Shown: piece by piece, positions 1,549 through 37,935 of the stretch
How positions within the stretch are numbered: the first letter of the stretch is position 1
Layout: every line of letters starts with the position of its first letter
Assembly: GCA_041559575.1 (NCBI GenBank)
Contig: JBFFDD010000002.1
Coordinates: 1-39,989, forward strand
Reading direction: 5' to 3'
DNA: 39,989 nucleotides
Source of the DNA: a bacterium
GTDB lineage: Bacteria > BMS3Abin14
Position numbers and translations under genes: made by a program
The notes under the pieces: generated by a model
Told to the model about the DNA's origin: nothing
Databases searched by the model: none
Seen by the model: only the letters and a program-made list of their open reading frames with translations

Positions 1549-1628
1549 AGACTGAAATCCAGATTTCAAGTTCCAAATTCCAGAATTTCGGGATGTAACT
1601 CCTCGCTAACGGGAGAATCATTGGGAAT

Positions 1629-2831
1629 ATGGGGCCTGGAATTAGGAATGAAAGAATAGTGCGTCGGATTTTTTCCGTCGAAAAGGTCTCGCTCACCGCT
1701 TCGATCCTCGGAGCCTTGCCTCTGTTCGGGTTCGGGTTTGTCATCTTTCGTCCCAACCGCCTGGTGAGCGGATCCGCAGTCTCTCTATGGAAGACAGCCG
1801 GCGACTGGATCGGCTGGGTCATTGTTGCCACCTGGCTCGTTCTGATCCTTCTTACCATCATCAAGTCACAGGACCGGATCCGCCACAGCCTGCTCTGCCT
1901 ATTGAGTTGCGCCCTGATCCCGGGTTTGCTATTTCTTGCCGGCCGGCACGCCGCCCTGGTGGCCGAAATTCAGGGACCGGTTGCCAGGGTATCCTTCGGC
2001 CCGGGTTTCTGGATCCCCGTGTTCGCTCTGGGCGTGATCATCACAAACTCCTTTCAGCGCTCCCGGGGTGCCAGGATCATCCTTGGGACCGCGGTGTTTC
2101 TGTCCTTTTCATCCTGCCTCATTTTGCTGGTTTCGGGACGGACCGATTCCCTTTCCCTGATGCGGGAGTTCATCAACCGCAGAGGGAGATTCTTCGGGGA
2201 ACTCCGGATCCACATGGCCCTGGCTGTGTCGAGCGTCGGTATCGCTTTCCTCCTCGGCGTCCCCCTGGGAATGGTGGCTCATCGGGTGAAAAAACTTCGC
2301 ACGCCTACCTTTTTCACCCTCAACACACTTCAGACAGTTCCCAGCCTGGCCCTCTTTGGGATCCTTATCCCCGTCCTGGCCGCTCTTATTGGCAGGTTCC
2401 CGGTGCTGGGAAAGATGGGTATTTCCGGTATTGGCACTGCGCCGGCCATCATCGCTCTGACGGCCTACTCGCTCCTTCCGGTGGCCCGCAACACCTTCAC
2501 CGGATTTTCCACCGTTGACCCAGCGGCCGTGGACGCTGGTCTGGGGATGGGGATGACCCGTGCCCAGCTGCTGTGGAGGGTTGAACTGCCCATCGCCTCA
2601 CCGATCATCCTGAACGGAATCAGAACAGCTCTTGTCCAGGCTGTCGGTTTAACCGCAGTAGCCGCCCTCATCGGGGCCGGCGGGTTCGGGGTTTTTATCT
2701 TCCAGGGTCTGGGCCAGGCGGCCACTGATCTCATTCTCCTTGGAGCCGTGCCAACAATCGTTATCGCGGTGGCCGCCGACGCTGCTATGAGCACGTTGAT
2801 AGTCATCGTCGAACCTAAGGGGCTGAAATGA
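1629..2831 (+). CDS. osmoprotectant ABC transporter permease, long YehY-like form
   Basis: Polytopic 400-aa protein. The C-terminal half carries the ABC permease loop AAVDAGLGMGMTRAQLLWRVELPIASPIILNGIR. The extra N-terminal TM block matches the long permease of the yehZYXW arrangement. The exact start is uncertain. Confidence 0.8.
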   Translation: MGPGIRNERIVRRIFSVEKVSLTASILGALPLFGFGFVIFRPNRLVSGSAVSLWKTAGDWIGWVIVATWLVLILLTIIKSQDRIRHSLLCLLSCALIPGLLFLAGRHAALVAEIQGPVARVSFGPGFWIPVFALGVIITNSFQRSRGARIILGTAVFLSFSSCLILLVSGRTDSLSLMREFINRRGRFFGELRIHMALAVSSVGIAFLLGVPLGMVAHRVKKLRTPTFFTLNTLQTVPSLALFGILIPVLAALIGRFPVLGKMGISGIGTAPAIIALTAYSLLPVARNTFTGFSTVDPAAVDAGLGMGMTRAQLLWRVELPIASPIILNGIRTALVQAVGLTAVAALIGAGGFGVFIFQGLGQAATDLILLGAVPTIVIAVAADAAMSTLIVIVEPKGLK

Positions 2832-3910
2832 TAAGCCTCCGCAATGTGACCAAGGAGTACCCGGGAACCACGGCCGTCGATGATCTGACGTTCAGCATCC
2901 ACAAGGGGGAGTTCACCGTCCTCATCGGACCCTCAGGCTGCGGTAAATCGACCACTCTGCGCCTGATCAACCGGCTCATTGAGACCACTCGCGGGACGAT
3001 CGCCATTGACGACAGGGATATCACCGAATTCAGGCCCGAGGAACTCAGGAGGCAGATCGGCTATGCCATTCAGAGTGTCGGGCTTTTTCCCCATATGACG
3101 GTGGCCCAGAATATCGCCGTTGTCCCGAGACTTCTCAAATGGGACACCGGTCGCATCGACAACCGTACCGAAGGGCTTCTGGAACTGTTCTCCCTTGAAC
3201 CATCCGAATACCGGGACAAGTATCCGAGGCAGCTGTCGGGCGGAGAAGCCCAGAGGGTGGGAGTGGCCAGGGCATTGGCAGCCGATCCTGGCATCCTGCT
3301 CATGGATGAGCCCTTCGGCGCCCTGGATCCCATTACCCGGGAATCACTGCAACTCGAGTTCGCCCGCATTCAGCGGGATCTGAAGAAGACCATCGTCTTC
3401 GTCACCCACGACATCGATGAGGCTATCCGACTGGCAAACCGGATCGTTATTCTGAAGGATGGCAGGCTTGTCCAACACGACACACCTGAGAACATCCTCA
3501 CCTCCCCTGTCGACCGTTTCGTCCTGGAATTCATCGGTACCGACCGTGCCCTCAAACGTCTGTCGCGCCTGTCGGCGACCGATTTCACCGTCGAAGCACC
3601 GTCCATAGCTGCGGACCGGCCTCCATCAGAGGCTGCCAGGATCATTGAGGACCGCAGATATGTCTGGGTCGTGGACGCCGAAAACCGTCCCATAGGCTGG
3701 CTCGATCAGGACGATCTGACACTGGGGTCCCCGACAGCGGCTGAAGCGATGACCCCTATGGATCACCACACGGAAGCCATCGCCGCGGACGCCACTCTTC
3801 GGGAGGCCCTTTCGAGGATGATCCAGAAGGGGATCAGAGGCGCACCGGTGGTGGACGAGAGAGGGAACCTGCTGGGGGAAATACGGCTCTCAGACATCCT
3901 GGATGCTTAA
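2828..3910 (+). CDS. osmoprotectant ABC transporter ATP-binding protein with C-terminal CBS pair
   Basis: Walker A GPSGCGKST, signature LSGGEAQR, Walker B ILLMDEPF, and a CBS-like C-terminal extension. The ATGA start/stop overlap with the upstream permease indicates translational coupling. Confidence 0.9.
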   Translation: MISLRNVTKEYPGTTAVDDLTFSIHKGEFTVLIGPSGCGKSTTLRLINRLIETTRGTIAIDDRDITEFRPEELRRQIGYAIQSVGLFPHMTVAQNIAVVPRLLKWDTGRIDNRTEGLLELFSLEPSEYRDKYPRQLSGGEAQRVGVARALAADPGILLMDEPFGALDPITRESLQLEFARIQRDLKKTIVFVTHDIDEAIRLANRIVILKDGRLVQHDTPENILTSPVDRFVLEFIGTDRALKRLSRLSATDFTVEAPSIAADRPPSEAARIIEDRRYVWVVDAENRPIGWLDQDDLTLGSPTAAEAMTPMDHHTEAIAADATLREALSRMIQKGIRGAPVVDERGNLLGEIRLSDILDA

Positions 3911-3959
3911 GAGAGTGGAAAGTGGAAAGGGAAAAGGGGAAAGAAAGACGAAGGAGCAA
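3911..3959. repeat. purine-rich heptamer array (GGAAAGT family), 7 units, starting on the base after the ATPase stop codon
   Basis: Reads gagagtg gaaagtg gaaaggg aaaaggg gaaagaa agacgaa ggagcaa. The 13-mer gagagtggaaagt recurs as a reverse complement at 34717..34729. Confidence 0.7.
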
Positions 3960-4053: not shown

Positions 4054-4785
4054 ATGTCCAAAAGCAAGCGCCGACAGATCCTCGTTTTACTAGTGCTCAT
4101 GGGAGCATTTATTTTCCTGGTCCTCTCCACCCTGCCCTGGTCCTGGTCAATGACCTTTCTCTTCCCTGACCTGGACACGGTCATCTACGCCATGGCCCCC
4201 TTCCGCCGTCTCGTCATGGAACACATTGCCCTGGTGGGGATCTCCAGCGGTCTGGCCACATTATTAGGTCTGGCCACCGGTATTTTCGCCACCCGAACCT
4301 GGGGCCGTGATTTCCTCCCCGCAGTCAACGCTCTGGCCTCCATGGGGCAGACCTTCCCACCTGTGGCCGTGCTGGCCCTGGCAGTCCCCGTTGTCGGTTT
4401 CGGATTCAAACCGACTATTATCGCCCTGCTGCTCTATGGGTTGCTACCGATCATCCGAAACACCATCGCGGGCATCGAGGCGTTGGATCCAGCCGTCCTG
4501 GAGGCCGCTCAAGGCATGGGGATGACTCCGGGCCAGGTTCTGACCAGAGTGGAACTGCCCCTGGCGGCCCCGGTCATCCTGGCCGGCGTACGGATCTCCA
4601 CGGTGATCAACATCGGGACAGCGACCCTCGGGGCGACCATCGGCGCCGGTGGTCTTGGAAAACCTATTATCGCCGGTCTGATCGGGGAGAACCCGGCTTA
4701 TATCCTGGAAGGGGCCCTCCTGGTCGGCCTCTTTGCCGTCATTATCGATACTGGATTGGGGTTGATGGTAAAAATCCAGAAATGA
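4054..4785 (+). CDS. osmoprotectant ABC transporter permease, YehW-like
   Basis: 243-aa polytopic protein with permease loop EAAQGMGMTPGQVLTRVELPLAAPVILAGVR. Fourth gene of the transporter cluster. Confidence 0.85.
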   Translation: MSKSKRRQILVLLVLMGAFIFLVLSTLPWSWSMTFLFPDLDTVIYAMAPFRRLVMEHIALVGISSGLATLLGLATGIFATRTWGRDFLPAVNALASMGQTFPPVAVLALAVPVVGFGFKPTIIALLLYGLLPIIRNTIAGIEALDPAVLEAAQGMGMTPGQVLTRVELPLAAPVILAGVRISTVINIGTATLGATIGAGGLGKPIIAGLIGENPAYILEGALLVGLFAVIIDTGLGLMVKIQK

Positions 4786-5307: not shown

Positions 5308-5407
5308 CACGTGGAGAGTGAAGGTTAAAAAGGGAAAGGGGGAGGCCTTGATGATTCCTCCTCCATCCTTCATCATTCACCCTCCAGGTCTCTCCTGCAC
5401 GGGTTCC

Positions 5408-5498
5408 AATCTCCAATCTCCAATCTCTAATCTCCAATCTCTAATCTCCAATCTCTAATCTCCAATCTCTAATCTCCAATCTCTAATCTCCAATTTCC
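5408..5498. repeat. perfectly phased heptamer tandem array, 13 x AATCTCY (about 6.5 x AATCTCCAATCTCT)
   Basis: Counted directly: aatctcc/aatctct alternate from 5408 to 5498. The stop codon and last codons of the minus-strand gene 5483..6424 lie inside the array. Confidence 0.95.
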
Positions 5499-6424
5499 AA
5501 TACTATCTTCCCTCTCACATGTTCCGTCTCACTCAACGCGTGGGCACGGCCTGCTTCCGAGAGGGGAAAGACCTCCGTTACGCTGGTCCTCACATGCCCC
5601 TCTTCGATAAGCCCGGCGATGGTGCCAAGCTGGGCCCCGTTGGGCTGAACGAAAACACCAACCCCCCTGACGCCCCTCTCGGCGGCCTTTCCCTCGTCCG
5701 GGGGGCCGAGGATCGAGACCAGGACGCCGCCTTCCTTTAACACCTGCCAGGAGCGGTCCTGGGTTTCCCCGGCCACAGCATCGAGGACCACATCGACATC
5801 GCTGACCGCATCCTCGAAGGGAACTTGGGTGTAATCGACAACCTCGTGGGCCCCGAGATCGATCAGGTAATCCCGGTTGCGGGCCGAAGCCGTCCCGATG
5901 ACCCGGGCGCCTTTCCACCTGGCAAACTGGACGGCAAAACTGCCCACCCCGCCGGCCGCGGCATGGATAAGCACCGTCTGCCCCGCCGTGAGGTCCGCCG
6001 CATCGAACAGGGATTGCCAGGCGGTAAGGGCAGCCAGCGGTATCGACGCCGCCTGGACGTGGTCGATGGATCTGGGTTTCAGGGCTGTGAACCCGGCCTT
6101 AACAGCGACATAATCCGCATAGGCCCCGTCACGGGAGATATCGGTAAAGGCATAGACCTCCTCCCCCACCTCCTTGTCGGTGACCTCAGATCCGGCTTTT
6201 TCCACCACACCGGAAACGTCCCAACCCAGGATGACCGGAAAATGGTAGGACAGCATTCCCTCCAGATATCCGGCCCGGACCTTCCAGTCAACGGGATTGA
6301 CGCCGGCTGCGTGGACACGGATCAGCACGTCGTCCTCCGATATATCCGGTACAGGAGCCTCCTCCAGAGCGAGGACATCGTGGCCGCCGTAGGAATGGAT
6401 ACGTACCGCTTTCATCTTGTCCAT
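5483..6424 (-). CDS. NADPH:quinone reductase / zinc-type alcohol dehydrogenase-like (MDR superfamily) oxidoreductase
   Basis: MKAVRIHSYGG... N-terminus and Rossmann motif AAGGVGSFAVQFAR. Start chosen at ATG 6424 (MDKMKAV) because GAGGAGAA lies just upstream. Confidence 0.85.
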   Translation of the reverse strand: MDKMKAVRIHSYGGHDVLALEEAPVPDISEDDVLIRVHAAGVNPVDWKVRAGYLEGMLSYHFPVILGWDVSGVVEKAGSEVTDKEVGEEVYAFTDISRDGAYADYVAVKAGFTALKPRSIDHVQAASIPLAALTAWQSLFDAADLTAGQTVLIHAAAGGVGSFAVQFARWKGARVIGTASARNRDYLIDLGAHEVVDYTQVPFEDAVSDVDVVLDAVAGETQDRSWQVLKEGGVLVSILGPPDEGKAAERGVRGVGVFVQPNGAQLGTIAGLIEEGHVRTSVTEVFPLSEAGRAHALSETEHVRGKIVLEIGD

Positions 6425-6756
6425 GATCGTTCTCCTCGAAAACATTGGTTCGGAATTCAATGGAACCCCGGGTTTTTATTAACAGGAGAAGCTTACCATA
6501 AAGCTCTTGCTGCAGAGAACCCGGTCAGGTCGGGAAAAATGGAGAATGGGGAACCCTGTCGCGTGGACAGGGCGAACAGGCGACTGTGAGACAGTATGAC
6601 CAAGCAATTTACCATTTGAGCCACTTTTTGGTTGAATCGACAGGTCGATAGGTCGGGGATTGAAACGTCTCAGTTCTCAGCTCTCAGGCCTAAATTATCA
6701 ATCACCTGATATAATTACCCTGTGACCATATTCCAATGATGGGGGGTAACTGAAAC

Positions 6757-7227
6757 ATGGCAGTGAGCGAGAGGTTGAAAAAGATATTCGAGGAACAGAA
6801 CGTACCCTACGATATCATGTACCATTCCGAGTCCTTCACGGCCCAGGAGAAGGCCGCCGGGCTACACGTGCCGGGGGCCCAGATGGTCAAGGTGGTCATG
6901 GCCAAAGCGGATGGGCAACTGGTGATGCTGGTCCTTTCGGCGGACTACAGTATCGACTTCGCTTTGCTCAGGGAAGCCCTGGGAACCAAAAAGGTCGGTC
7001 TCGCCGACGAGGCCGATTTCGGGAAATTCTTCCCCGACTGTGATCTCGGAGCCATGCCGCCCTTCGGGAATCTCTACGATATCCCGGTCTGGGTGGAGGA
7101 ACATCTGGCGGAGCAGGAAAGCATCGTCTTTAACGCCTGCACGCACCACGAGGCCGCCAGGATCGCCTACAGCGATTATGACCGGCTTGTCCATCCGAAG
7201 GTGGCGGAATTCGGGAGGCATGTATAA
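6757..7227 (+). CDS. YbaK/EbsC-type aminoacyl-tRNA deacylase domain protein
   Basis: 156-aa protein whose length and pattern (VKVVMAKADGQLVMLVLSADYSIDF...GAMPPFGNLY) fit the YbaK/ProX trans-editing fold. Confidence 0.7.
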   Translation: MAVSERLKKIFEEQNVPYDIMYHSESFTAQEKAAGLHVPGAQMVKVVMAKADGQLVMLVLSADYSIDFALLREALGTKKVGLADEADFGKFFPDCDLGAMPPFGNLYDIPVWVEEHLAEQESIVFNACTHHEAARIAYSDYDRLVHPKVAEFGRHV

Positions 7228-7234
7228 AGTCGGC

Positions 7235-7311
7235 GGAAAGTGGAAAGTGAAAGGAGAAAGCGTAAACCTCTTCAACCTTTCTCCATTAACCTTTAACCTT
7301 TGCCCTTAACC
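7235..7311. repeat. composite 11-heptamer (77 bp) element: GGAAAGT-type units followed by CTTTAAC-type units
   Basis: Reads ggaaagt ggaaagt gaaagga gaaagcg taaacct cttcaac ctttctc cattaac ctttaac ctttgcc cttaacc in one register. ggagaaag (7253..7260) can pair with ctttctcc (7277..7284). It lies between the convergent genes ybaK-like and cfa. Confidence 0.85.
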
Positions 7312-7324
7312 TCTGGTGAAGCCC

Positions 7325-8443
7325 TCACCTCGGCGCCGGGTAGCCACCCGGCACGCCCCTCCTGGACAGCACGATCTGCCAGAGTTGATCCCTTCTGGCC
7401 CGGAACCCCCCGGCGGAGCTGAGGAGGAAATACCTCCACATCCTGTAGAAACGATCACCATAGCGGGCCCTGAGTCTGGGCCATCCGGCCTCGAAATTTT
7501 CATACCAGGCCATCAAGGTCCGATCGTAGTCCTGGCCGAAACTGTGCCAATCCTCGAGCATGAAGATCCCTTCGAAGGCCTCCGCGATCTGCCTGGCCGA
7601 GGGTATGAGACCATTGGGGAAGATGTAGCGATCCGTCCATGGGTTGATGGTGGTCACCGATCGGTTGCTTCCGATCGTCTGGAGCAGAAACAGACCATCG
7701 TCCTCCATCAGACGGGCTATGGTTTTCATGTAGGTCCGGTAGTTCTTGACCCCGACGTGTTCGAACATTCCCACCGACAGGATTCGATCGAACTTCCCGT
7801 CGATGGCCCTGTAGTCCTTAAAATGGATCTGAACCGGCAGGCTACGGCAGATCTCCCGGGCCCGGGTGGTCTGATCGCGGGAGACGGTCACGCCGACGAC
7901 CTCCACCCCGTAATGCTCGGCAGCGAATTTAGCCGTTCCGCCCCAACCGCACCCCACGTCGAGGACCCTCATGCCCGGTTCCATTGCCAGCTTACGGCAG
8001 ATAAGGTCGAGCTTGTTCGTCTGGGCCTGGTTCAGATCATCAGCGTCCCGCCAGTAGGCTCCGCTGTAGATCATCCGATCATCGAGCATAGTCTCGAAGA
8101 GATCGTTGCCGATATCATAATGGGCTTCCCCGACTTTATAGCACCGTCTGCGGGTCTGAAGGTTGATAAGTCTGGCCTTGAGGCTGATGATTGCCGCCCC
8201 CCTGGAGGCCACTTTCTCGTCGAGCCTGGCCCTCACGGACCGGTGAAAGAACTCGTCCAGCGCGCGGCAATCCCACCATCCATCCATGTAGGATTCCCCG
8301 ACCCCGAGAGCCCCCTGAGCCAGGACCCTTCCGTAAAACCTGTCCTCGTGAACCTGAATATCCCAGGGACGGCCGCCATCGATGCGAATATCTGCCAGTG
8401 AAAGCAGGTCCTGGATCCTGTTCTTCTGAGCTTTGCTCCCCAT
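7325..8443 (-). CDS. cfa: cyclopropane-fatty-acyl-phospholipid synthase
   Basis: 372 aa with a CMAS-family pattern: GESYMDGWWDC, SAM motif VLDVGCGWGG, SVGMFEHVG. Confidence 0.9.
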   Translation of the reverse strand: MGSKAQKNRIQDLLSLADIRIDGGRPWDIQVHEDRFYGRVLAQGALGVGESYMDGWWDCRALDEFFHRSVRARLDEKVASRGAAIISLKARLINLQTRRRCYKVGEAHYDIGNDLFETMLDDRMIYSGAYWRDADDLNQAQTNKLDLICRKLAMEPGMRVLDVGCGWGGTAKFAAEHYGVEVVGVTVSRDQTTRAREICRSLPVQIHFKDYRAIDGKFDRILSVGMFEHVGVKNYRTYMKTIARLMEDDGLFLLQTIGSNRSVTTINPWTDRYIFPNGLIPSARQIAEAFEGIFMLEDWHSFGQDYDRTLMAWYENFEAGWPRLRARYGDRFYRMWRYFLLSSAGGFRARRDQLWQIVLSRRGVPGGYPAPR

Positions 8444-8466: not shown

Positions 8467-8499
8467 CCCCGCCTCGAATCTCTGATCGAGGGGGTTTTT
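8467..8499. terminator. GC hairpin plus T-run between guaC and cfa (candidate intrinsic terminator)
   Basis: ccccgcctcga / tcgagggg forms a 9-bp stem with one bulge and an 8-nt loop. TTTTT follows on the plus strand; the minus-strand 3-prime side is atcttgtgtttt. Which strand it serves is unclear. Confidence 0.4.
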
Positions 8500-9630: not shown

Positions 9631-9735
9631 TATGGAGAATGGAAAATGGCGATTGGAGATCAGAAACTGGATATTCGAGAATGGAGATGGGAAAAAGAGA
9701 GAGGAAAGCAGAAAGAATTAAGGGAAAAGGGCCAA
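9631..9735. repeat. degenerate heptamer array (AATGGAG/ATTGGAG, then GGGAAAA units), about 15 units
   Basis: Reads tatggag aatggaa aatggcg attggag atcagaa actggat attcgag aatggag atgggaa ... in one register. ATTGGAG is a circular permutation of GGAGATT, the complement of the AATCTCC family. Confidence 0.55.
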
Positions 9736-9940: not shown

Positions 9941-10861
9941 CTACCCCGCTGGCGAGAGACCCACCTTGATGAGGTCCTTTTCCTCACGCACCCAACCCTC
10001 CTGACCGTTCACACGCAAATGGAGCCAGGGTTTTTGAACCCTTAATTCCAGGGTCTTTTCACCGACAAAGCTCGCCTCAGTCAACGCTTCAATATACTCG
10101 ATGCGGCTGTCACGCTTGACCGGAACGCTGATAGTAGGGGAGTTTTCCAGCGGTTGGACGTACAGCTCCACGGGATCCGGGTCTCTGAAAAACTCCGGCA
10201 TCCGATCCTCGACGGAGAAAGTGCGAAGTCCCTCCGGAATCCTCGTCCGAGCATTCTCCAGGTCCACTGATAGAGGAACAACGACCCCGAAGTATCCCGT
10301 CCACACGGTGAAAGGTATCCGACCATCCTGGAGCCTGATCCTGCCGTTGGCCGAGGGGGAAATGCCGTTGATACCACCGTAAACAGTCAACCACTGAGTA
10401 AACGGTCTTACCTTTTCCCCCTGCCGGGTGAAGATCCGGATGCTTCTTCCCGATGCAGGAGCCGAGGGGATCGCGTCCCTCACAAGCAGGATCCCCCGCC
10501 ATGTCTCACCGACCAGGAGATAGGGGATGACGCTGAAGCTGTACTCGAAACCGGTGCTGAAACGGGGCACGTGAAATGCCTCGGCGAAGTGGACGCTTCC
10601 AGCCCTGTCCAGGATGCGGATCTCCTGAACGGTCCTCCCCCAGAGGGGGACCTGGCCCTTGGGAACCTCCTCCTGGAACTCCTCCTCATGGATCTGGACG
10701 GTGAAAGATCTGTTGCCGATAAACAGACGCTCGGACTCGGTTACTTTCCACCCAGCAGGGGTGGAGACCTCCTCACTCTCCTCCCCGATGGCTGGTCCCG
10801 TTATCATCAGGGCGAAAAGGGAACAAACAATGAGAACGTTGAATCTGTGAAAAGGTCTCAT
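9941..10861 (-). CDS. hypothetical exported protein
   Basis: Signal peptide MRPFHRFNVLIVCSLFALMITGPAIG. No recognised catalytic motif. The C-terminus (WLHLRVNGQEGWV) is faintly SH3b-like. Confidence 0.55.
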   Translation of the reverse strand: MRPFHRFNVLIVCSLFALMITGPAIGEESEEVSTPAGWKVTESERLFIGNRSFTVQIHEEEFQEEVPKGQVPLWGRTVQEIRILDRAGSVHFAEAFHVPRFSTGFEYSFSVIPYLLVGETWRGILLVRDAIPSAPASGRSIRIFTRQGEKVRPFTQWLTVYGGINGISPSANGRIRLQDGRIPFTVWTGYFGVVVPLSVDLENARTRIPEGLRTFSVEDRMPEFFRDPDPVELYVQPLENSPTISVPVKRDSRIEYIEALTEASFVGEKTLELRVQKPWLHLRVNGQEGWVREEKDLIKVGLSPAG

Positions 10862-10922: not shown

Positions 10923-10999
10923 GTTAAAGGTTAATGGATAAAGGTAAAAGAATAAAGTCAAACTCTTTCCACTTTCATTTTTAATTTACCACTTTACAG
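10923..10999. repeat. composite 11-heptamer (77 bp) element, inverted copy of the 7235..7311 architecture
   Basis: Reads gttaaag gttaatg gataaag gtaaaag aataaag tcaaact ctttcca ctttcat ttttaat ttaccac tttacag. 10923..10943 matches the reverse complement of 7277..7297 at 20 of 21 positions. Confidence 0.85.
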
Positions 11000-12974: not shown

Positions 12975-13787
12975 TCATCCTTCCGGAATAGCATCCTCGC
13001 ACGGCACATCCGTCTGGCACAGGCCGCACCCCAACTCGGAAACACCGTACTCCTCCTTGAGAGCCTGGAAACCAGGGCCGGATGTGTACCGCTGGCATAG
13101 GTGCTTGTCGTGCCCATCCAGGGAGATGGCGCCCACCGGGCAGCGCTGTATGCAGACGCCGCATTCCAGGCCCCTGCACGTCAGACAGTTCTCCCGGTAG
13201 TCCCTGTAGGGTCGCGCGCTGGGTTCCATGACAAAGTCCGTTATCACGCTCCCGCACCGGTGGGCGATGCCTCGGGGTGTTATCAGACCGTCGTTGAGGC
13301 TGAAGGTACCCAGGCCGGCGGCGTAAGCCGCGTGCCGCTCGGACCAGGTGGACGCCAATCCGATCCGGGGGTCATCGACCCTGGCCCATCCATCGGCCAG
13401 CATCGGGGCGACCGCGTGACAACCGCGGGAGATGAGGAACCGGACCACCGCTTTTCGCAGCTCATCGTTGAACCTCTCCCCGAAGTTCCGGGTCCTTCCC
13501 CACTCCAAGGACGGGTATCTGTCCTGTTTTCGATTACTCACCCTGGTTCGTTCTGTAATGGGGAGGATCCAGCTGACCACCGTTCCCTCGTCCCGCCCGA
13601 GAATCTCAGTGGGCGCCCAGTGGAAAGGGCCGATTATGTCCTTGTACCCATCAAAGAGGGGATCTGTCGCAGAAGCGAAGCCCACCAACGGCGTGTCGAA
13701 GTAAGCTTGGCCCTCCGAGAAGCGGTTTGCGGGATGCTCCCTGGTGAGCCGCTCGATCTCCTCATGGAGCTCTGTTTTAAGATCCAT
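12975..13787 (-). CDS. 4Fe-4S dicluster protein, epoxyqueuosine reductase (QueG)/reductive dehalogenase-like
   Basis: Cys clusters CLTCRGLECGVCIQRCP and CGLCQTDVPC. Start placed at ATG 13787 (MDLKTELHEEI) with AAGAGG upstream. Confidence 0.6.
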   Translation of the reverse strand: MDLKTELHEEIERLTREHPANRFSEGQAYFDTPLVGFASATDPLFDGYKDIIGPFHWAPTEILGRDEGTVVSWILPITERTRVSNRKQDRYPSLEWGRTRNFGERFNDELRKAVVRFLISRGCHAVAPMLADGWARVDDPRIGLASTWSERHAAYAAGLGTFSLNDGLITPRGIAHRCGSVITDFVMEPSARPYRDYRENCLTCRGLECGVCIQRCPVGAISLDGHDKHLCQRYTSGPGFQALKEEYGVSELGCGLCQTDVPCEDAIPEG

Positions 13788-14064
13788 GGTTTGCCTCTTG
13801 TCCGGTTGGGAGGTATGAATGATTCTAAAATTGTAAAGATTATGGGGGAAAGGTAAAAGGAGAAAGGTCAATGGAGCCTCCGCTGACTTTTTGCCTCTAC
13901 ACTTTCCTCGACATTACCCCTTCTGTGCCCCCTGTGGAGTAGACCCTGAACTCTTTCTCGGCGAACCTTGGCTCCCGCGGCGAGGCTGAAAGCCAAGCCG
14001 GTCGGCTTTGCGAGAGACAGCCTTCCGGTGCGAATTATGGAGATGAACCTGGTTTTTCCGAGGA

Positions 14065-16983: not shown

Positions 16984-17883
16984 CTACGAATCGGGTGTCG
17001 TCCTCATGGTCGTTCGGTCCTCGGAGACGAATATTCCCTTGATAAATCTCCAGATGGCGGTGAAAAACGCCGCGATACCGACAAAGATGGCCTTCCAGGC
17101 CTTGGCCAGGGCCTGGAACAGCCCCAGCTTGGCCGCCGCGGCGCCCGCTCCCCCCGCGACCAGGGCTGTCAGGCCTATCTGGGCGACCTTGTCCCCCTGA
17201 ACATATTCGAGGTAACTGTTGCCGGTCTTGTAGTTGAAGTTGGCGATCATGGAATCCACCATTGGCTTGTACGCGGAGAGGGTGTCCGGATCGGTCACCA
17301 GGATCGCTGAGGAGTATCCGCCCCGTCCGAGGAGACGGACGTTGTAATTGACCACCTGACGGCCCTCACTCTCGGCCAGCATGGCCCAGGTGAGGTTGTG
17401 AGTGGCTTCGTCGTAATGGGGTTCCTCATACCAGCCGGTTATGTGCAAGGGAGGCGCTCCCAGTTTCTCCCTCTGCTTGTTCCCCTCTGCCGTGCCCTTG
17501 CGGTAGCTTTCCAGGATCGCGTCGCCATCGATCTCATCCCGGTCATCATCCCGGACATAGCCTACCGGGAAGTACTCCAGGACCATAAACCAGTTCTGGT
17601 TCTCATCCTTGGGGACAACAATACCCATCTCGGCTTCGGTTGGCGGATTGCCGTAATACTCCATGATCAGCCTGGTATCCTCCGGCCCGGCGAAAAGATA
17701 GTCCTCACCTATGTTCATCTCGGCCAATTTTTCCCCCAGATCGACCCGAGCCGGTCCATCTACCCACTGGATCTGACGCTGCTCCTCACCGCTACTTTCC
17801 GAAGCGATGGCCGGACCGGCCGGCCCTGTTGTCAGTCCAGCGACAATCCACAGGACCTTGACCACATTCATCAGCCCTTTCAT
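16984..17883 (-). CDS. DUF2167-like membrane-anchored protein
   Basis: Signal peptide, a globular domain (QWVDGPARVDLGEKLAEMNIGEDYLF...NWFMVLEYFPVGYV) resembling DUF2167 as I recall it, and a C-terminal TM anchor. Strong RBS GAAGGAGGG. Confidence 0.6.
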   Translation of the reverse strand: MKGLMNVVKVLWIVAGLTTGPAGPAIASESSGEEQRQIQWVDGPARVDLGEKLAEMNIGEDYLFAGPEDTRLIMEYYGNPPTEAEMGIVVPKDENQNWFMVLEYFPVGYVRDDDRDEIDGDAILESYRKGTAEGNKQREKLGAPPLHITGWYEEPHYDEATHNLTWAMLAESEGRQVVNYNVRLLGRGGYSSAILVTDPDTLSAYKPMVDSMIANFNYKTGNSYLEYVQGDKVAQIGLTALVAGGAGAAAAKLGLFQALAKAWKAIFVGIAAFFTAIWRFIKGIFVSEDRTTMRTTPDS

Positions 17884-18890: not shown

Positions 18891-19988
18891 ATGGCCCGAT
18901 GTGAACTCTGCCATTTGTCGGATCGGACAATTTCCCGGGAATTGGGGGTCTGTCTCCGGTGTATCAGGGAAGATCCCGACCAGGCTCTCCCGTTGGCGGG
19001 CGAGGCCCACCGCCGGAGCCGGAGGGAATTTGGCCTGCCGGAAAAGGTCCCCAAGCATGCTGACGGACTTGCCTGTATCGTCTGCGTCAACGAATGCCTG
19101 ATCCCCGAGGGAGAGCGGGGGTACTGCGGCCTGAGGATTAACGAGGGAGGAAAGCTGACCGGCGTCTCCTCAGACCGGGGAAAACTGTCCTGGTACCGCG
19201 ATCCCCTGCCCACCAACTGTGTCTCCGACTGGGTGTGTCCCGCCGGGACCGGATGCGGATATCCGGAGTACTCCCTCACCAGCGGCCCGGAGGTCGGTTA
19301 TAGCAACCTGGCGGTCTTCTTCCACGCCTGCTCCCTGGAGTGCCTTTCCTGCCAGAACTGGCAATTCCGGAACGCCACCATGGAACCTGAGGTCAAGTCG
19401 CCGGAAGACCTCGCTGAGGCGGTGGACGACCGGACAGCCTGCATCTGTTATTTCGGCGGCGACCCGGCGCCCCAGGCTCCGTTTGCCATCCAGGCGTCCC
19501 AAGCCGCCATGAAAAGGAGGAAAAAAGGCATCCTGAGGATATGCTGGGAGACCAACGGCACAGCCGCGACCCACCTCATGGACGATATGCTCGAGCTTTC
19601 CCTGACCTCCGGCGGCTGTGTCAAGTTCGATCTGAAAGCACACGATGAGAAGCTGGCCCTCGCCCTGACAGGGGTCACCAATCGACGCACCCTGGAAAAC
19701 TTCCAGAGGACAGTGGAGGCGTCAAGGGATCGCCCCATCCCTCCCCCGGTGGTAGCCAGTACCTTGATGGTCCCCGGCTACATCGACGAAAGTGAGATCC
19801 GCTCCATCGCCCGGTTCATCGCCTCGGCCGATCCCGGCATCCCCTACAGCCTCCTGGCCTTCTATCCCCATTTCCGCATGCGGGACCTCCCGCTTATGAC
19901 CAGAGATGAGGCTGAGGCGATGAGGGATAGCGCGCTGGCAGAGGGACTGACCCGGGTGAAGTTGGGGAATGAGCATTTATTGAGATAG
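18891..19988 (+). CDS. radical SAM enzyme, PflA/AmmeMemoRadiSam-like activase family, with Cys-rich N-terminal extension
   Basis: CX3CX2C motif CSLECLSCQNW. N-terminal CELCH...CLRC and CIVCVNEC clusters. GERGYCGLR motif typical of this rSAM subgroup. Confidence 0.75.
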   Translation: MARCELCHLSDRTISRELGVCLRCIREDPDQALPLAGEAHRRSRREFGLPEKVPKHADGLACIVCVNECLIPEGERGYCGLRINEGGKLTGVSSDRGKLSWYRDPLPTNCVSDWVCPAGTGCGYPEYSLTSGPEVGYSNLAVFFHACSLECLSCQNWQFRNATMEPEVKSPEDLAEAVDDRTACICYFGGDPAPQAPFAIQASQAAMKRRKKGILRICWETNGTAATHLMDDMLELSLTSGGCVKFDLKAHDEKLALALTGVTNRRTLENFQRTVEASRDRPIPPPVVASTLMVPGYIDESEIRSIARFIASADPGIPYSLLAFYPHFRMRDLPLMTRDEAEAMRDSALAEGLTRVKLGNEHLLR

Positions 19989-20023
19989 GGATTAGAGATT
20001 GGAGATTGGAGATTGAAGATTGA
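19989..20023. repeat. heptamer array 5 x AGATTGR (complement of the AATCTCY family), starting on the base after the stop codon
   Basis: Reads ggattag agattgg agattgg agattga agattga. This is the same family as 5408..5498 in the opposite orientation. Confidence 0.85.
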
Positions 20024-20073
20024 AAACCAGAATAATATATCATTAGAGCATTAGAAAGATCCTTTAAACCATT

Positions 20074-20108
20074 AATGTCCAATATCTAATTTCTAATTTC
20101 CAATGGTC
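20074..20108. repeat. heptamer array 5 x AATNTCY, inverted partner of 19989..20023
   Basis: Reads aatgtcc aatatct aatttct aatttcc aatggtc. With 19989..20023 it forms an imperfect inverted repeat around an AT-rich 50-nt spacer. Confidence 0.7.
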
Positions 20109-20151
20109 AAAATATCTAGACACCAGACCCTGAAACCTGGACACCGCTCCC

Positions 20152-20727
20152 ATGGATTGGCACTCCCCATCACTCTTCGCTATCCTTGACGGTCGCGACG
20201 GAAAAGCCCTTCTTGGGCAATGCCTCAAAGGGGATTTCACCCCCGTGTTCCGGGCCCTCGCATTCCATAAGGTTCGATATCTCATTGTCGGCGGCGCGGC
20301 CATGAACCTGCACGGGATCCCCCGGTTGACGGATGATCTGGACCTGTTCGTAGATCTCCGTGAGGACAACCTGGTCCGGTTGCAGGCTGCCATGGAGGAT
20401 CTGGGATGTACGCCCCCTCCTTCGGTGGACCCTGACCACATCCTGCAGGAGGAGTCCCGGAAAATACTTTCCCGGGAAAGCTGCAGATCCACCATCTCAT
20501 TCATCAACCCTGAGGAACCCGGCCTCAAGGTCGAAATCCTGCTTCTGGCCCCAGCATCCTTCAATGAGGTCTACCCGAGGCGGCAGTGGACCCCCTTCGG
20601 CGAAATGGAACTCCCGGTCCTGTGCCTCGATGACATGATAAGGTTCCTTAACCTATACGGCCGGGACCAGGACCCAAGGGATATTCAGATATTGGAAAAA
20701 GTGCGGGAGATCAGAGGGAAGAGATAG
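20152..20727 (+). CDS. nucleotidyltransferase-fold (MNT-like) protein, uncharacterised
   Basis: The G-x(n)-DxD pattern VGGAAMNLHGIPRLTDDLDLFVD is typical of minimal nucleotidyltransferases. No adjacent HEPN-like partner is seen. Confidence 0.55.
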   Translation: MDWHSPSLFAILDGRDGKALLGQCLKGDFTPVFRALAFHKVRYLIVGGAAMNLHGIPRLTDDLDLFVDLREDNLVRLQAAMEDLGCTPPPSVDPDHILQEESRKILSRESCRSTISFINPEEPGLKVEILLLAPASFNEVYPRRQWTPFGEMELPVLCLDDMIRFLNLYGRDQDPRDIQILEKVREIRGKR

Positions 20728-20844
20728 TTTCCAGTTTCTAGTTTCCAGTTTTCAGTTTCCAGTTTCCAGTTTTCAGTTTCCAGCTTCCAGTTTCCAGTTC
20801 TCAGTACTTAGCTCTTAGTTCTTGGCTCTCAGTTCTCAGCTCCT
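20726..20844. repeat. 17 consecutive in-register heptamers drifting from AGTTTCC to AGTTCTC/AGCTCTT
   Basis: Counted directly: agtttcc agtttct agtttcc agttttc agtttcc agtttcc agttttc agtttcc agcttcc agtttcc agttctc agtactt agctctt agttctt ggctctc agttctc agctcct. The array starts inside the TAG stop of the upstream gene. Confidence 0.95.
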
Positions 20845-20859
20845 AAGAGATGTCCCTAC

Positions 20860-24159: not shown

Positions 24160-24257
24160 GTTCCAGGTTTCAGGTTTCAGGTTTCAGAAAATGTTCCAAA
24201 ATCCAAGGTCCAAAATCAACAATAAGAACCTTTAACCACAGAGGACACAGAGAGGGG
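24160..24257. repeat. 14 in-register heptamers spanning four motif families (GTTTCAG, TCCAAAA, CTTTAAC, CACAGAG)
   Basis: Reads gttccag gtttcag gtttcag gtttcag aaaatgt tccaaaa tccaagg tccaaaa tcaacaa taagaac ctttaac cacagag gacacag agagggg. Confidence 0.85.
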
Positions 24258-27249: not shown

Positions 27250-27459
27250 ACGGTCATTAAAACGGAGTTGAGAGGGTTGTTCAAGGAGGAAGGGTAAAGA
27301 AAAGTGGAAGGTGGAAAGGGAGGAACATTCGTCCTATGGGATGAGATGTCGGAGTATCGGGGTGCCGGGGTAATGGCGCAAAAACATAAGCGTTGAAAGA
27401 ATCGAGCGAAGCCATTAACAGGAATCACGCCTCTGACGAGATGACGAATCAATCCCTTA

Positions 27460-27522
27460 AATTTTGAATTTTGAATATGGAATTTTTTTCTGTTACTAAT
27501 CACAAATCACGAATCACGGACT
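27460..27522. repeat. heptamer array (AATTTTG then ACNAATC units), 9 units
   Basis: Reads aattttg aattttg aatatgg aattttt ttctgtt actaatc acaaatc acgaatc acggact. Confidence 0.65.
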
Positions 27523-27551
27523 AAATATTTTGGACGGTATCCCGATTCCGC

Positions 27552-27580
27552 AAAAAAAAAGCCGGCAGCAGCCGGCTTTT
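27552..27580 (-). terminator. rho-independent terminator downstream of lpxC
   Basis: On the minus strand, aaaagccggc tgct gccggc is followed by nine T. The palindrome gccggc-agca-gccggc has A/T runs on both sides, so it may work in both directions. Confidence 0.8.
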
Positions 27581-27603
27581 CACTTCTTTCATTGAATCAA
27601 CTA

Positions 27604-33335: not shown

Positions 33336-34583
33336 CTAGTCCCGAAGCCTGTGGGCATAGAAAGGAAACCGCTCGCACAGTCCCCTGACCTGGGCCCGGA
33401 CATCGCCCAGATAACTCTCGTCTTCCCGGCGATCCAGGCAGTCGGCGATCCAACCGGCGATCTGAACCATCTCGGGCTCTTTCATTCCCCTGGTGGTCAG
33501 TGCGGGGGTTCCGATGCGGATCCCACTGGTGATGAACGGGCTGCGTGTCTCGAAGGGAACCGTGTTCTTGTTGACGGTAATGCCGGCCCTGTCCAATGTC
33601 TCCTCGGCATCCTTGCCCGTGTAATCGGCCTCCCTGAGGTCGACCAGCATGAGATGATTATCCGTACCTCCGGAGACGAGTTTGAACCCCCGGGAGGTCA
33701 GTTCGCCGGCCATCGCCTTGGCGTTGGCCACGATCTGCCTCTGATAGGCTTTGAAATCGGGCTTCAGAGCCTCCTTGAACGCCACGGCCTTGGCGGCGAT
33801 GGTGTGCATGAGGGGTCCACCCTGGGATCCGGGGAAGACACGGCTGCCGAGCCTCTTGGCAAACTCCTCCGTGGCCAGGATCATGCCCCCCCTCGGCCCC
33901 CGCAGGGTCTTGTGTGTGGTCGTGGTCACGATGTGGGCATCGGGGACGGGGTTGGGGTGGATACCTGCCGCAACCAGGCCTGCGATGTGGGCCATATCGA
34001 CAAAAAGGACCGCGCCGACCTCGTCGCAGATCTCCCGGAACCGCTTAAAGTCGATAGTCCTCGGGTAGGCCGAGGCCCCGGCGATAATCATCTTCGGCCG
34101 GTGTTCCTGAGCCAGGCCCCTGACCTGGTCAAAATCGATCCTCTGGTCATCCTCGGTGACGCCGTAGGATACGACGTTGTACAGGAATCCGGAGAAGTTC
34201 ACCGGGCTGCCGTGGGTCAGATGGCCGCCGTGGGAGAGGTCCATCCCCAGGATGGTGTCACCTGGTTCCAGGACGGCGAAGTAAACGGCCATATTGGCCT
34301 GGGAGCCCGAGTGGGGCTGCACGTTGACGTACTCGGCCCCGAAAAGTTCCTTGCCCCTCCTTATGGCAAGGTCCTCGGCTATGTCAACGTACTCGCATCC
34401 GCCGTAATACCTCTTGAAAGGATAACCCTCGGCGTACTTGTTGGTCATCACAGAGCCCTGCGCCTCCAGAACGTCCTCACTGACGAGGTTCTCCGAGGCG
34501 ATGAGCTCAAGCTGGTATTCCTCCCTCTCCGTCTCCTGGCGAATGGCCTGGTAGATCTCAGGGTCGAACTCTTTTAGTGACAA
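33336..34583 (-). CDS. glyA: serine hydroxymethyltransferase
   Basis: PLP-lysine motif [14 protein letters not shown]; 415 aa. TTG start with GGAG 9 nt upstream. Confidence 0.95.
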
Positions 34584-34609
34584 TGTTTTGCTCCTATAAA
34601 TTAGCGCGG

Positions 34610-34727
34610 GTTAAGGATTAAAGGGTAAATGTTAAAGGTTAAAGAAAAAGAGATAGAGTTAAAGGAAGTTTCAATAACGCTTTAACCCCTATTCTGATTT
34701 TCCCTTTCCACTTTCTACTTTCCACTC
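34610..34727. repeat. composite heptamer element: GTTAAAG-type array then ACTTTCC-type array (same architecture as 10923..10999, inverse of 7235..7311)
   Basis: Reads gttaagg attaaag ggtaaat gttaaag gttaaag ... tccactt tctactt tccactc. 34717..34729 is the reverse complement of 3911..3923. Confidence 0.8.
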
Positions 34728-34733
34728 TCTAAT

Positions 34734-35156
34734 TCACTCATCGATCTTCTCTACGCGCCTTTCGTGTCTTCCGCCCTCGAAGGATGAATCAAGCCATGCG
34801 TCAACGATCTCCCTGGCCAGATCCGGTCCCAGGACTCTCCCCCCGAGGACCAGGACGTTGGCGTTGTTGTGGCGCCGAGAGGCCGAGGCGGTAAAGTGGT
34901 CGTGACATAAAGCCGCCCTCACTCCCCGATACCGGTTCGCCACCATGGACATACCCAGCCCGGTCCCGCAGACCAGGATACCCAATTCCATCTCCCCATC
35001 GGCGATTGCCACAGCGACTTTTCTGGCGAAGTCGGTGTAATCCACCGAATCGGTAGAGTCGGTGCCAAGGTCGACCGTTCTGATTCCTCTTCCCGAGAGG
35101 TGCTCTTTGACCATCTCCTTGAGGGGAAAACCGGCGTGGTCCGAGGCCAGGGCCAC
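34734..35156 (-). CDS. rpiB: ribose-5-phosphate isomerase B
   Basis: [10 protein letters not shown]-terminal motif and [13 protein letters not shown]. There is no ATG near the conserved N-terminus, so GTG at 35156 is proposed. The start is uncertain. Confidence 0.8.
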
Positions 35157-35175
35157 CCGGAATCTGGTTTGTCGG

Positions 35176-35646
35176 CTAGAGTTCACTCTTGTCAACCATT
35201 GCCTCGTGGCAGTAGGCGCAGAACCTCCCCAGGACCTTGCCGCCATCGGTGGCGATCCGCAGGTATTTTGCGTTGGTGTTGGAGGGATGGGGATCGTGGC
35301 AGCTGGTACAGGTCAAAAGACCCCCGTCACTGAGAACCTCGGCCGGAACGTTGGCTTTGACCGGCTTCAATCCCACCGGATGGCTTTTCATGAAGTGGAT
35401 GGGGGCGATCCCTTCATCCTCGTTGTGGCAGCCGAGACAGAGGGAATCCACACCTGCCGCCGGGGCACCTGAGTGCTTGTACTTTTCGGAGGTGTTCGGC
35501 ATGATTCCAAAAGCCGGATCGGCCTTCGTGTCATGAAGGCTGTGGCATTCGGTACAGTTATTGTCGTGGGGGCCGGCCGCCTGGGAAACGAACGGCAGAC
35601 CGATGAACACTACAGCGCAGATCACGATACAGGCTTTTTTCATCAC
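35176..35646 (-). CDS. tetrahaem c-type cytochrome, exported
   Basis: Four CxxCH sites (CTECH, CLGCH, CTSCH, CAYCH) in 156 aa. Signal peptide [25 protein letters not shown]. Confidence 0.85.
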
Positions 35647-35889
35647 ATCCCTCCCCGAAATTTACAATGAATTCAATCAGTTATAAACCGGATTCCTTTG
35701 TGAACCTATAAACCCTTCATCCCCTTCGGATAAACTAGTTGAAACTATACTTTCAGCCCGATTTTTGTCAAGGGAAGAGGGGAAAAATGCCGTAATCAGA
35801 GGAATTTTTCCCGGTGTTTAGTGTCCGGTTTCTGGAAAAGGATGAATCGAGCCGCTTCTGAGGATCCGGAAAGTCGCTATGAATTCTGA

Positions 35890-35945
35890 TGGATAGTGGA
35901 AACTGGAAACTGAAAACTGGAAACTGAAAACTCGAAACTGCGGAA
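35890..35945. repeat. heptamer array 8 x TGRAAAC (complement of the AGTTTCC family)
   Basis: Reads tggatag tggaaac tggaaac tgaaaac tggaaac tgaaaac tcgaaac tgcggaa. This is the same family as 20726..20844 in the opposite orientation. Confidence 0.85.
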
Positions 35946-35975
35946 AAATATCACGGAAAATGGTATTTTCCCGCC

Positions 35976-37622: not shown

Positions 37623-37627
37623 CGCCA

Positions 37628-37700
37628 AGTTTGGAGTTTGAAGTTTGTGGTTTGAAATGTTAATGCGACAGGTATTCAGGTGTCAGGATTCAGTATTCAG
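37628..37700. repeat. two adjacent heptamer arrays (AGTTTGR x4, then NNTTCAG x4)
   Basis: Reads agtttgg agtttga agtttgt ggtttga ... tattcag gtgtcag gattcag tattcag. The rest of the 313-bp spacer also looks 7-periodic. Confidence 0.7.
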
Positions 37701-37935
37701 GAAAACCCGGTCAAAATCTCTCTGAGCTCTTCGCAAAGAGCCCTTAGCCCTTAATTCTTTCCTCCCGGTTGTTAAGTTCTCAGCCCTCGGTTCTTGGTAC
37801 TTCGTCCCGTTTTTTTAACTTTTTCGTAACAATTTCGAACCCTTCTGGCCTCCCGGACGGCATGGGTTATAATTGTGAATAGGATGAGGGCCTTAAAGGA
37901 CCGGAGAGGAGACATTACCGGAAGGCGGTGAAAGC

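Follow-up and report, generated by a model that had tools for sequence, protein, structure and literature searches.

Three loci (locus 1, 7235-7311; locus 2, 10923-10999; locus 3, 34606-34733) lie between genes in a 39,989-nt stretch of contig JBFFDD010000002.1 (assembly GCA_041559575.1, positions 1 to 39,989, forward strand; hereafter the window) from a bacterium of the BMS3Abin14 lineage, and each is built from runs of 7-nt units. A first-pass annotation had read them as dispersed copies of one 77-bp composite resembling a miniature inverted-repeat transposable element (MITE) or a repetitive extragenic palindrome (REP). With a probability of roughly 60%, we conclude instead that these loci are ordinary representatives of the intergenic heptanucleotide simple sequence repeats (SSRs) that populate the whole genome, not copies of a discrete mobile element. 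The arrays of this population are specific to a period of seven, confined to non-coding DNA, dispersed as families in both orientations, hypervariable among strains and turning over at fixed spacers.

The window was searched with Tandem Repeats Finder (TRF), and non-overlapping arrays with a period of 7, 14, 21 or 28 were counted. Across lags 1-15, only 7 and 14 gave local windows with a self-match of at least 0.7. We recovered 24 arrays made of about 15 different units (among them TCCAATC ×14, AGTTTCC ×10, GAGATTG, TGGAAAC, GTTTCAG, TCCAAAA, AAGTTTG, CAGGATT, ACTTAGC, AATTTTG and AATCACG), 23 of which fall in the non-coding 15.6% of the window (P = 5.6 × 10−18), where arrays account for 12.7% of spacer bases. 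Read in 7-nt blocks, spacers of more than 100 nt mostly contain between one and three arrays, many of which begin within a few bases of a stop codon. The resulting density, 6.0 arrays per 10 kb, is roughly tenfold that measured in a comparison set of 80 diverse bacterial loci (0.61 per 10 kb in 1.35 Mb). Families recur on opposite strands, as in the pairs TCCAATC/GAGATTG and AGTTTCC/TGGAAAC. The best local alignment between any two spacers joins 20728-20859 with 35647-35975 (score 73), followed by 5308-5482 with 19989-20151 (score 56), while pairs of the focal loci score 43-44 against a median of 19. Because other spacer pairs outscore the focal loci, sharing of arrays is a trait of all heptamer families rather than of one composite.

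Exact-protein look-ups retrieved 20 conspecific contigs, from NCBI metagenome-assembled genomes and Logan assemblies, which are 97.6-100% identical to the window. Among them, arrays carry 96.8 variable sites per kb, compared with 13.3 in other spacer and 3.5 in coding sequence, and the array at 5405-5501 shows indels of 7 nt and ~28 nt. All 20 assemblies carry the three focal loci, and hence none offers an empty site. Variation at the focal loci comprises only point changes and a 1-nt indel: at locus 1 a G indel at 7248 (most assemblies carry an extra G, which restores the register) and T>C at 7282 and 7287, and at locus 3 point changes only, with the spacer constantly 150 nt.

A search of genome contigs with serine hydroxymethyltransferase returned only distant taxa (≤71% identity), and exact 8-mer peptide seeds missed the true relatives; syntenic relatives, all uncultured bacteria at 68-72% mean amino-acid identity (AAI), were reached via CMAS and RpiB homologues. 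The contigs compared are L091 (CP070719.1), L092 (CP070698.1), L094 (GCA_975970825.1), L095 and L096 (JGI 3300041075 and 3300041080), L097 (CP070682.1) and L098 ('bacterium BMS3Abin14', placed by NCBI in unclassified Bacteria). Array density per 10 kb is 7.8 in L095, 5.2 in L092, 5.1 in L094 and 1.9 in L091, and L097 and L098 hold fewer than two period-7 arrays each. The spacer from rpiB to glyA, which contains locus 3, reads as follows:

Window: AGTGGAA ×4 ... CTTTAAC ×6, 150 nt.
L094: GTGAACA ×3 ... CACCGAT/AACGGAT ×13, 168 nt.
L095: TCAGTAG ×4, TCGAAGT ×5, AGTACCT ×5, 167 nt.
L097: weak repeats, 75 nt.
L098: no arrays, 12 nt.

The orthologous spacers align with scores of 13 and 16, which equal the non-orthologous null. 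Since relatives hold arrays of unrelated units at this very position, the site records turnover in place and not the insertion of an element.

In the layout of the focal loci given below, A denotes a GGAAAGT-type array, B' a CTTTAAC-type array and B the same array read on the opposite strand (GGTTAAA/GTTAAAG-type).

7235 to 7262, plus strand: A array of locus 1 (GGAAAGT GGAAAGT G-AAAGG AGAAAGC), beginning 7 nt past the stop of a YbaK-like gene (6757-7227).
7263 to 7312, plus strand: B' array of locus 1 (CTTCAAC CTTTCTC CATTAAC CTTTAAC CTTTGCC CTTAACC), period 7 with a 21-nt superperiod, ending 12 nt short of the CMAS stop codon (gene 7325-8443, minus strand, convergent).
10923 to 10960, plus strand: B array of locus 2 (GTTAAAG GTTAATG GATAAAG GTAAAAG ...), in a divergent promoter spacer.
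10961 to 10999, minus strand: degenerate A array of locus 2, minus strand ...GAAAGTGGAAAGAG, with the A 14-mer at 10964 (2 mismatches).
34606 to 34666, plus strand: B array of locus 3 (GGTTAAG GATTAAA GGGTAAA TGTTAAA GGTTAAA ...), upstream of glyA (33336-34583, minus strand).
34696 to 34733, minus strand: A array of locus 3, minus strand ATT AGAGAGT GGAAAGT AGAAAGT GGAAAGG GAAAA, the repeat beginning 3 nt past the rpiB stop.
3911 to 3950, plus strand: A array with no B partner (GAGAGTG GAAAGTG GAAAGGG AAAAGGG GAAAG), its first base directly past the stop of an ABC ATPase gene (2828-3910).
27285 to 27325, plus strand: A-like array with no B partner (GGAAGGT GGAAAGG ...).

The period-7 structure that had been described at the three loci is borne out, with lag-7 self-matches of 0.63, 0.57 and 0.50 at 7235-7311, 10923-10999 and 34610-34727, values that none of 2000 dinucleotide shuffles reached, and TRF reports a period of 7 (plus 14 or 21) at each. 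In 7-nt blocks, locus 1 reads GGAAAGT GGAAAGT GAAAGGA GAAAGCG TAAACCT CTTCAAC CTTTCTC CATTAAC CTTTAAC CTTTGCC CTTAACC and locus 2 reads GTTAAAG GTTAATG GATAAAG GTAAAAG AATAAAG TCAAACT CTTTCCA CTTTCAT TTTTAAT TTACCAC TTTACAG; locus 3 has GGTTAAA-type units, a non-repeat middle of ~40 nt and then CTTTCCA-type units. The description of a 77-bp unit of exactly 11 heptamers proved arbitrary: a 1-nt deletion at 7248 breaks the register of locus 1, the A half of locus 2 (10961-10999) is degenerate, and the third copy spans 118 nt or more including its non-repeat middle. Focal lengths are 77-78 nt at locus 1, ~77 nt at locus 2 and ~128 nt at locus 3.

What does recur is the order of the two arrays. 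Read in one orientation, A precedes B' at all three loci (alignment A1), so the shared composite architecture noted earlier holds, with likeness confined to the array cores and a mean column identity of 49%. The reverse-complement match between 10923-10943 and 7277-7297 is exactly 20/21 as first reported and extends to 26/29; the 21-mer CTTTCTCCATTAACCTTTAAC has exactly two matches at three or fewer mismatches, at 7277 (plus strand) and 10923 (minus strand, 1 mismatch), against 0.00 expected by chance. Likewise, a perfect 13/13 reverse-complement match joins GAGAGTGGAAAGT (3911-3923) to 34717-34729, as had been stated, and these two arrays run on identically as GAGAGTGGAAAGT[AGAAAGT]GGAAAGGGAAAA apart from one extra heptamer (a 7-nt indel). 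When the B' arrays of loci 1 and 2 are compared four units at a time, the top match is 25/28, a value reached by 6.8% of arrays drawn from the position weight matrix of the family (PWM; P = 0.07) and by 1.1% of arrays with permuted unit order (P = 0.011), only a modest excess over independent arrays of the same family.

The A 14-mer (GGAAAGT-type, two or fewer mismatches) occurs in five spacers (3911, 7235, 10964, 27299 and 34703), and the B 14-mer (GGTTAAA-type) in three (7285, 10922 and 34609). All three B spacers are also A spacers with constant order and orientation, for which the hypergeometric P, calculated by hand, is 10/4060 = 0.0025, multiplied by ~1/16 for orientation; A and B are therefore linked beyond chance, with A standing alone at 3911 and 27299. 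Heptamer units also find their nearest neighbour within their own genome in 62% of cases compared with 25% expected (permutation P < 2 × 10−4), a clustering that points to genome-specific seeding or within-genome copying. The suggestion that the arrays are not only products of local slippage thus stands in a weak form, resting on A-B linkage, shared unit order and genome-wise clustering of units, and falls in the form of a mobile composite unit. Overall, the original observation is partly confirmed and its interpretation partly supported: some copying between loci is likely, and a mobile hairpin element is not part of it.

We propose that slippage during replication or repair, with a preference for a 7-nt register, would amplify short seeds into head-to-tail arrays. 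Because seven is not a multiple of three, an array arising within a gene would shift the frame and be removed by selection, so that arrays would accumulate only in spacers, often up to the stop codon itself. Once formed, they would expand, contract and decay fast, and over inter-genus distances the units of a given spacer would usually be replaced. The recurrence of a limited, genome-specific set of units in many spacers and in both orientations probably reflects recurring seeds together with occasional templating or conversion within a family. The 'composite' would then be a GGAAAGT-family array beside a GGTTAAA-family array of the other strand, and the A-B' adjacency, as well as the unit order shared by 7263-7297 and 10923-10957 (3.6 kb apart), would find its best explanation in occasional ectopic copying, which would suffice with neither transposition nor a hairpin. 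Some arrays may be under constraint, with a subset serving a cis-regulatory or untranslated region (UTR) role.

Several observations weigh against this account. Four arrays are conserved between the window and L091 (AAI ~72%), each scoring no lower than the 99th percentile of the non-orthologous null, in the spacers opuAC>BPD, cyt c><ADH, AbiEii><FabH and rSAM>AbiEii, where unit, orientation and even unit number are kept. They are an imperfect heptamer run past opuAC (41/47 identical), the TCCAATC/AGATTGG array by the stop of the zinc-type alcohol dehydrogenase (ADH) gene (46/55 identical), six CTGAGAA-type units past FabH and the GAGATTG array past the radical-SAM gene. Conservation over such a distance argues against pure neutral slippage, which does not predict it. 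Moreover, chance adjacency is no explanation for A-then-B' in 3/3 B spacers in one orientation (~10−4 by hand), nor for a similar arrangement outside the lineage. When the 21-mer CTTTNTCCATTAACCTTTAAC was scanned against metagenomes, it gave six matches (GC 0.27-0.50), none from the source organism, of which L109, L110 and L111 run on with a 21-nt superperiod CTTTNTC CATTAAC CTTTAAC CTTTNTC. In L109, an unrelated contig (GC 0.42), a stop codon is followed by a non-coding, purine-rich GAGAAGT-like stretch and then a B' array, and this A-like-then-B' arrangement is 80% identical to 7242-7301 of the window over 61 nt. The 7-nt preference of slippage is itself a step that we infer, the strain differences rest on metagenome assemblies, which are prone to misassembling repeats, and the analysis covers 40 kb of the source genome and ~100 kb of relatives.

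The most probable alternative is that the arrays are functional cis-elements, read either by a DNA-binding protein that recognizes tandem heptads or by an RNA-binding protein acting on unstructured repeats in 5' or 3' UTRs, with A past stop codons and B' ahead of start codons forming a functional pair. At the DNA level, the ribbon-helix-helix repressor omega of pSM19035 reportedly binds WATCACW heptad arrays; at the RNA level, ribosomal protein S1, Csp and CsrA have been proposed as candidate readers of TAACTGA repeats (PMC4679880). Besides the four conserved orthologous arrays and the non-random co-occurrence of A and B, this proposal is favoured by the many arrays that abut stop codons (3911, 7235, 34733, 20728, 37627, rpiB in L094 and L095, L110 and L111), by a purine-rich sense strand in the 50 nt past stop codons (0.568, p = 1.7 × 10−4), and by B' arrays lying in sense 20-60 nt upstream of the starts of glyA, a 306-aa gene and a gene in L093, with B' RNA predicted to be unstructured. 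In contrast, many readers would be required for about 15 unrelated units in 40 kb, families are found running both with and against the direction of transcription, the rpiB-glyA units are entirely different in relatives, no sites vary more within the species than the arrays do, and no known RNA family matches. A single reader is disfavoured because the units are diverse and show no strand preference. We consider it unlikely that the arrays as a whole are functional in this way, and a role for a subset of them, through a DNA- or RNA-binding reader or through UTR composition, is plausible without being what we would expect.

A bolder version of this idea is that tandem 7-bp arrays may be selected as such by a dedicated system, either a family of heptad-reading proteins or an activity that templates or copies arrays, rather than arising by passive slippage. 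Nearly every longer spacer would keep arrays at the same places, past stops and before starts, over ~70% AAI, with units conserved (four spacers) or swapped for genome-specific ones. Were this so, the GGAAAGT/GGTTAAA pair would be a recurrent functional module, found also past a stop codon in an unrelated metagenome contig. We hold this to be doubtful.

A non-autonomous composite of ~77 bp, built of heptamers, folding into a hairpin and mobilised in trans (e.g., by a REP-associated tyrosine transposase, RAYT), is very unlikely and largely refuted within the window. The constant A-then-B' layout, the shared variant order, the like arrangement in L109 and the arms of locus 1 (24 nt at 75% complementarity) would all suit such an element. 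However, terminal inverted repeats common to the copies are absent, the only inverted repeats being internal and reflecting partial A/B' complementarity; the three copies share neither a fixed length nor common ends; and target-site duplications, which had been proposed as a check, do not flank loci 1 and 3, the 4-nt CGAA within a few nt of each end of locus 2 being within chance. Loci 2 and 3 lack significant arm complementarity, and no transposase, RAYT or Y1 transposase domain was found among 40 open reading frames (ORFs) of the window scanned with Pfam. Presence/absence polymorphism is not seen among the 20 assemblies, and the orthologous rpiB-glyA site of relatives holds other arrays instead of being empty. 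Furthermore, the parts occur separately, A alone at 3911 and 27299, and B' alone in L093 (the closest other species by CMAS, 74% identity) and in L110 and L111, in both of which it sits 1-2 nt past a stop codon in a convergent spacer.

The two halves of locus 1 are partly complementary, as first noted (GGAGAAAG at 7253-7260 pairs with CTTTCTCC at 7277-7284), but the further claim that each copy can fold into a hairpin reflects composition only. RNA folds of both strands of the loci give z-scores of −1.8 to +0.8 against shuffles, in the A/B' arm duplexes 251, 370 and 443 of 500 mononucleotide-shuffled B' arms reach an energy at least as good as that of the real arm, and RNAalifold applied to the copies yields −5.2 kcal/mol with a covariation term of +0.23, i.e., no covariation support. 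A hairpin or cruciform was thus rejected, single folds, arm duplexes and RNAalifold all being at background. Rfam 15 returned no match at gathering score in the whole window, and at an E-value threshold gave only sub-threshold miRNA hairpins at the three loci. That the purine- and pyrimidine-rich arrays form a long imperfect stem, acting as a bidirectional terminator or RNase III processing site between genes, is likewise very unlikely: although the A arm pairs with the B' arm in the minimum free energy structure of each locus, and locus 1 lies between convergent genes with no canonical intrinsic terminator and has a minus-strand fold of −29.9 kcal/mol (z = −1.8), loci 2 and 3 fold no better than shuffles, shuffled arms match the duplex energy, covariation is lacking, a terminator would be senseless in the divergent promoter region of locus 2, and canonical GC-rich terminators exist elsewhere in the window (8472-8491 and 27551-27585).

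Over-representation of heptanucleotide repeats in some bacteria has reportedly been known since 1990 from the short tandemly repeated repetitive (STRR) sequences of cyanobacteria, and since 2007 from a genome survey; to our knowledge, no study has established why the unit measures 7 nt or what function it may serve. Cyanobacterial STRR comprise several heptamer families, each present at many intergenic loci in both orientations, with neither their function nor their mechanism of spreading established. The window resembles them in having several heptamer families dispersed intergenically in both orientations, but its units are unrelated, its phylum is different, its arrays are shorter and more degenerate (mostly 3-6 units), and some stand at conserved orthologous positions between genera. 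STRR heptamers of Calothrix, Nostoc and Anabaena enter PMC4692102 as its ref. 39. According to PMC4679880 and PMC4692102, heptanucleotide repeats are the commonest class of long SSR in many prokaryotes, and slippage has been ascribed, as a proposal, to a 7-nt polymerase footprint that favours it. For Xanthomonas, Nostoc, Calothrix and Beggiatoaceae, dispersed families of heptamers have been described, with inverted pairs in convergent spacers among them (PMC4679880, PMC4692102).

The long SSRs of Mrazek, Guo & Shah (2007), as outlined in those two papers (PMC4679880, PMC4692102), share with the window head-to-tail 7-nt units, dominance of heptamers, strong intergenic preference and phylogenetically sporadic occurrence. 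Set against that outline, the window differs in holding ~6 arrays per 10 kb, in most spacers >100 nt, and ~15 units in 40 kb instead of one or a few, in an uncultured lineage that is not known to have been described in this respect before. The GGGAATC repeats of Xanthomonas and GGGGA(T/C)T repeats of Nostoc (Rehm et al. 2015, PMC4692102) form intergenic arrays of 2-26 units, some as inverted pairs in convergent spacers as at locus 1; they are G-rich, capable of forming G-quadruplexes and dominated by one family, whereas GGAAAGT and GGTTAAA of the window have no G3 tracts. The TAACTGA repeats of marine Beggiatoaceae, cyanobacteria and Bacteroidetes (MacGregor 2015, PMC4679880) are, as here, intergenic direct repeats of a heptamer near coding-sequence boundaries, and their unit spans distant taxa, as do the CCTTTAA-type arrays (L093, L109-L111). 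In contrast, TAACTGA is a single unit placed just upstream of starts (PMC4679880), while the window has many units on both strands, many of them abutting stops. Compared with MITEs and with REPs or bacterial interspersed mosaic elements, the focal loci are likewise short, non-coding, intergenic, multi-copy and present in both orientations, but they lack terminal inverted repeats, target-site duplications, a stable palindrome and a fixed length, contain tandem heptamers, and no transposase or RAYT was seen in the window. A literature search for the unit sequences themselves returned nothing relevant.

The arrays are therefore a known kind of repeat, unusually dense, in a poorly known uncultured lineage that is new for it. 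Combining a density of ~6 arrays per 10 kb with numerous unit families, this lineage provides an extreme and tractable comparative case, for which closed relatives (CP070719.1, CP070698.1 and CP070682.1) and many conspecific assemblies, such as GCA_041558515.1 and GCA_041546335.1, are at hand. The contrast between conserved arrays and turnover at fixed positions could serve to tell selection apart from a bias of mutation. In annotation, the label MITE is best avoided for such arrays, which can also supply stop codons and C-terminal residues, as in ADH.

Other arrays of the window are listed below.

5405 to 5501, plus strand: longest array, (TCCAATC/TCTAATC) ×14, its end overlapping the ADH gene (5483-6460, minus strand).
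19982 to 20022, plus strand: GAGATTG ×6, family of 5405-5501 in opposite orientation, with a related array in the orthologous L091 spacer.
20726 to 20842, plus strand: AGTTTCC ×10 then TCTCAGT/TCTTAGC units, filling the convergent AbiEii-like/FabH spacer, with FabH-side units conserved in L091.
35897 to 35940, plus strand: TGGAAAC ×6, family of 20726-20799 in opposite orientation.
1549 to 1596, plus strand: imperfect heptamer run past the opuAC stop, 41/47 bases (~87%) identical in L091.
9633 to 9685, plus strand: TGGAGAA-type, 21-nt superperiod.
24160 to 24217, plus strand: GTTTCAG ×4 then TCCAAAA ×3.
37627 to 37702, plus strand: AAGTTTG ×4 then CAGGATT ×4-5.

The last five codons of ADH (LEIGD) and its TAG stop are built from TCCAATC/TCTAATC units (5483-5501), and because an array of variable length supplies these codons, the ADH C-terminus could vary between strains. 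The run past opuAC (1549-1596; L091 18105-18152, reverse strand) contains the palindrome TGAAATCCAGATTTCA and resembles a conserved regulatory site more than a plain repeat. At 13848-13876 lies the sole period-14 array found mostly within a called ORF (GAAAGGTAAAAGGA; ORF 12975-13871, minus strand, no Pfam match); the true start of this ORF is probably further downstream than the one called. At 27498-27518 stand three tandem heptads, AATCACA AATCACG AATCACG; the first fits WATCACW, the heptad to which the omega repressor of pSM19035 binds, while the second and third share AATCAC and end in G, possibly by coincidence. In the 3' region of the NFACT gene, 37669-37702 reads CAGGTAT TCAGGTG TCAGGAT TCAGTAT TCAGGAA, CAGGA-type heptamers reminiscent of the CAGGA(U/A/C)G repeats found in sponge RNAs of the CsrB type.

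Two general rules for the spacers were tried and rejected. A purine-rich half followed by a pyrimidine-rich half is obeyed by only 45 of 81 spacers, the post-stop purine bias alone being significant. A common TGGA/GGA core, as in a CsrA-like sponge, is not a feature of the units either, TCCA/TGGA occurring in 13 of 62, barely above other 4-mers and about half of the time antisense.

Relatives carry further short repeats. A partly palindromic dispersed element related to CTCTGCG..GCGTTAAAGC occurs in L094 (2560-2625) and L095 (3925-3975 and 17540-17570); it looks more REP-like than the heptamer arrays and went unnoticed when the window spacers were read, with no search for it made there. Another dispersed short-repeat family in L095 has a tandem 9-nt unit, CCTGTAAAT, in three spacers (~3826-3868, 5784-5817 and 17865-17881), ending in GTCAAAAAAA. 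In L110, a 22-nt unit, GGTTGCTTAGGCGTCACCCCCC, is repeated 5.9 times at 10712-10840, at the end of the 10.8 kb examined of a 38.8-kb contig.

Genes of the window are ordinary chromosomal ones, encoding an opu-type ABC operon, cytochromes c, ADH, the YbaK-like editing protein, the CMAS methyltransferase, Lgt, FabH, LpxC, RnfCDGE, NrdR, GlyA, RpiB and NFACT; no tRNA was found in the window, and loci 1 and 3 contain neither a canonical promoter nor a canonical terminator. A near-consensus sigma-70 promoter (TTGACA, 16 nt, TATAGT) lies on the minus strand at 35744-35771, upstream of the cytochrome c7 and rpiB genes, and is conserved in L094 (~4516-4548) as CTTGACAAAAA..GGGCTGAAAGTATAGTTTC. The RpiB ORF spans 34734-35246 when called mechanically (170 aa), while homologues and the database entry have 150-153 aa; its true start is probably the ATG at 35195 (ORF 34734-35195), which leaves a 20-nt overlap with the end of the cytochrome c7 gene. 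Finally, DUF3179 is split over the adjacent ORFs 37936-38247 and 38269-38856 (profile positions 1-64 and 74-234), and the same split in L095 (7371-7679 and 6768-7349) suggests that this may be a genuine two-gene arrangement and not a frameshift or pseudogene.

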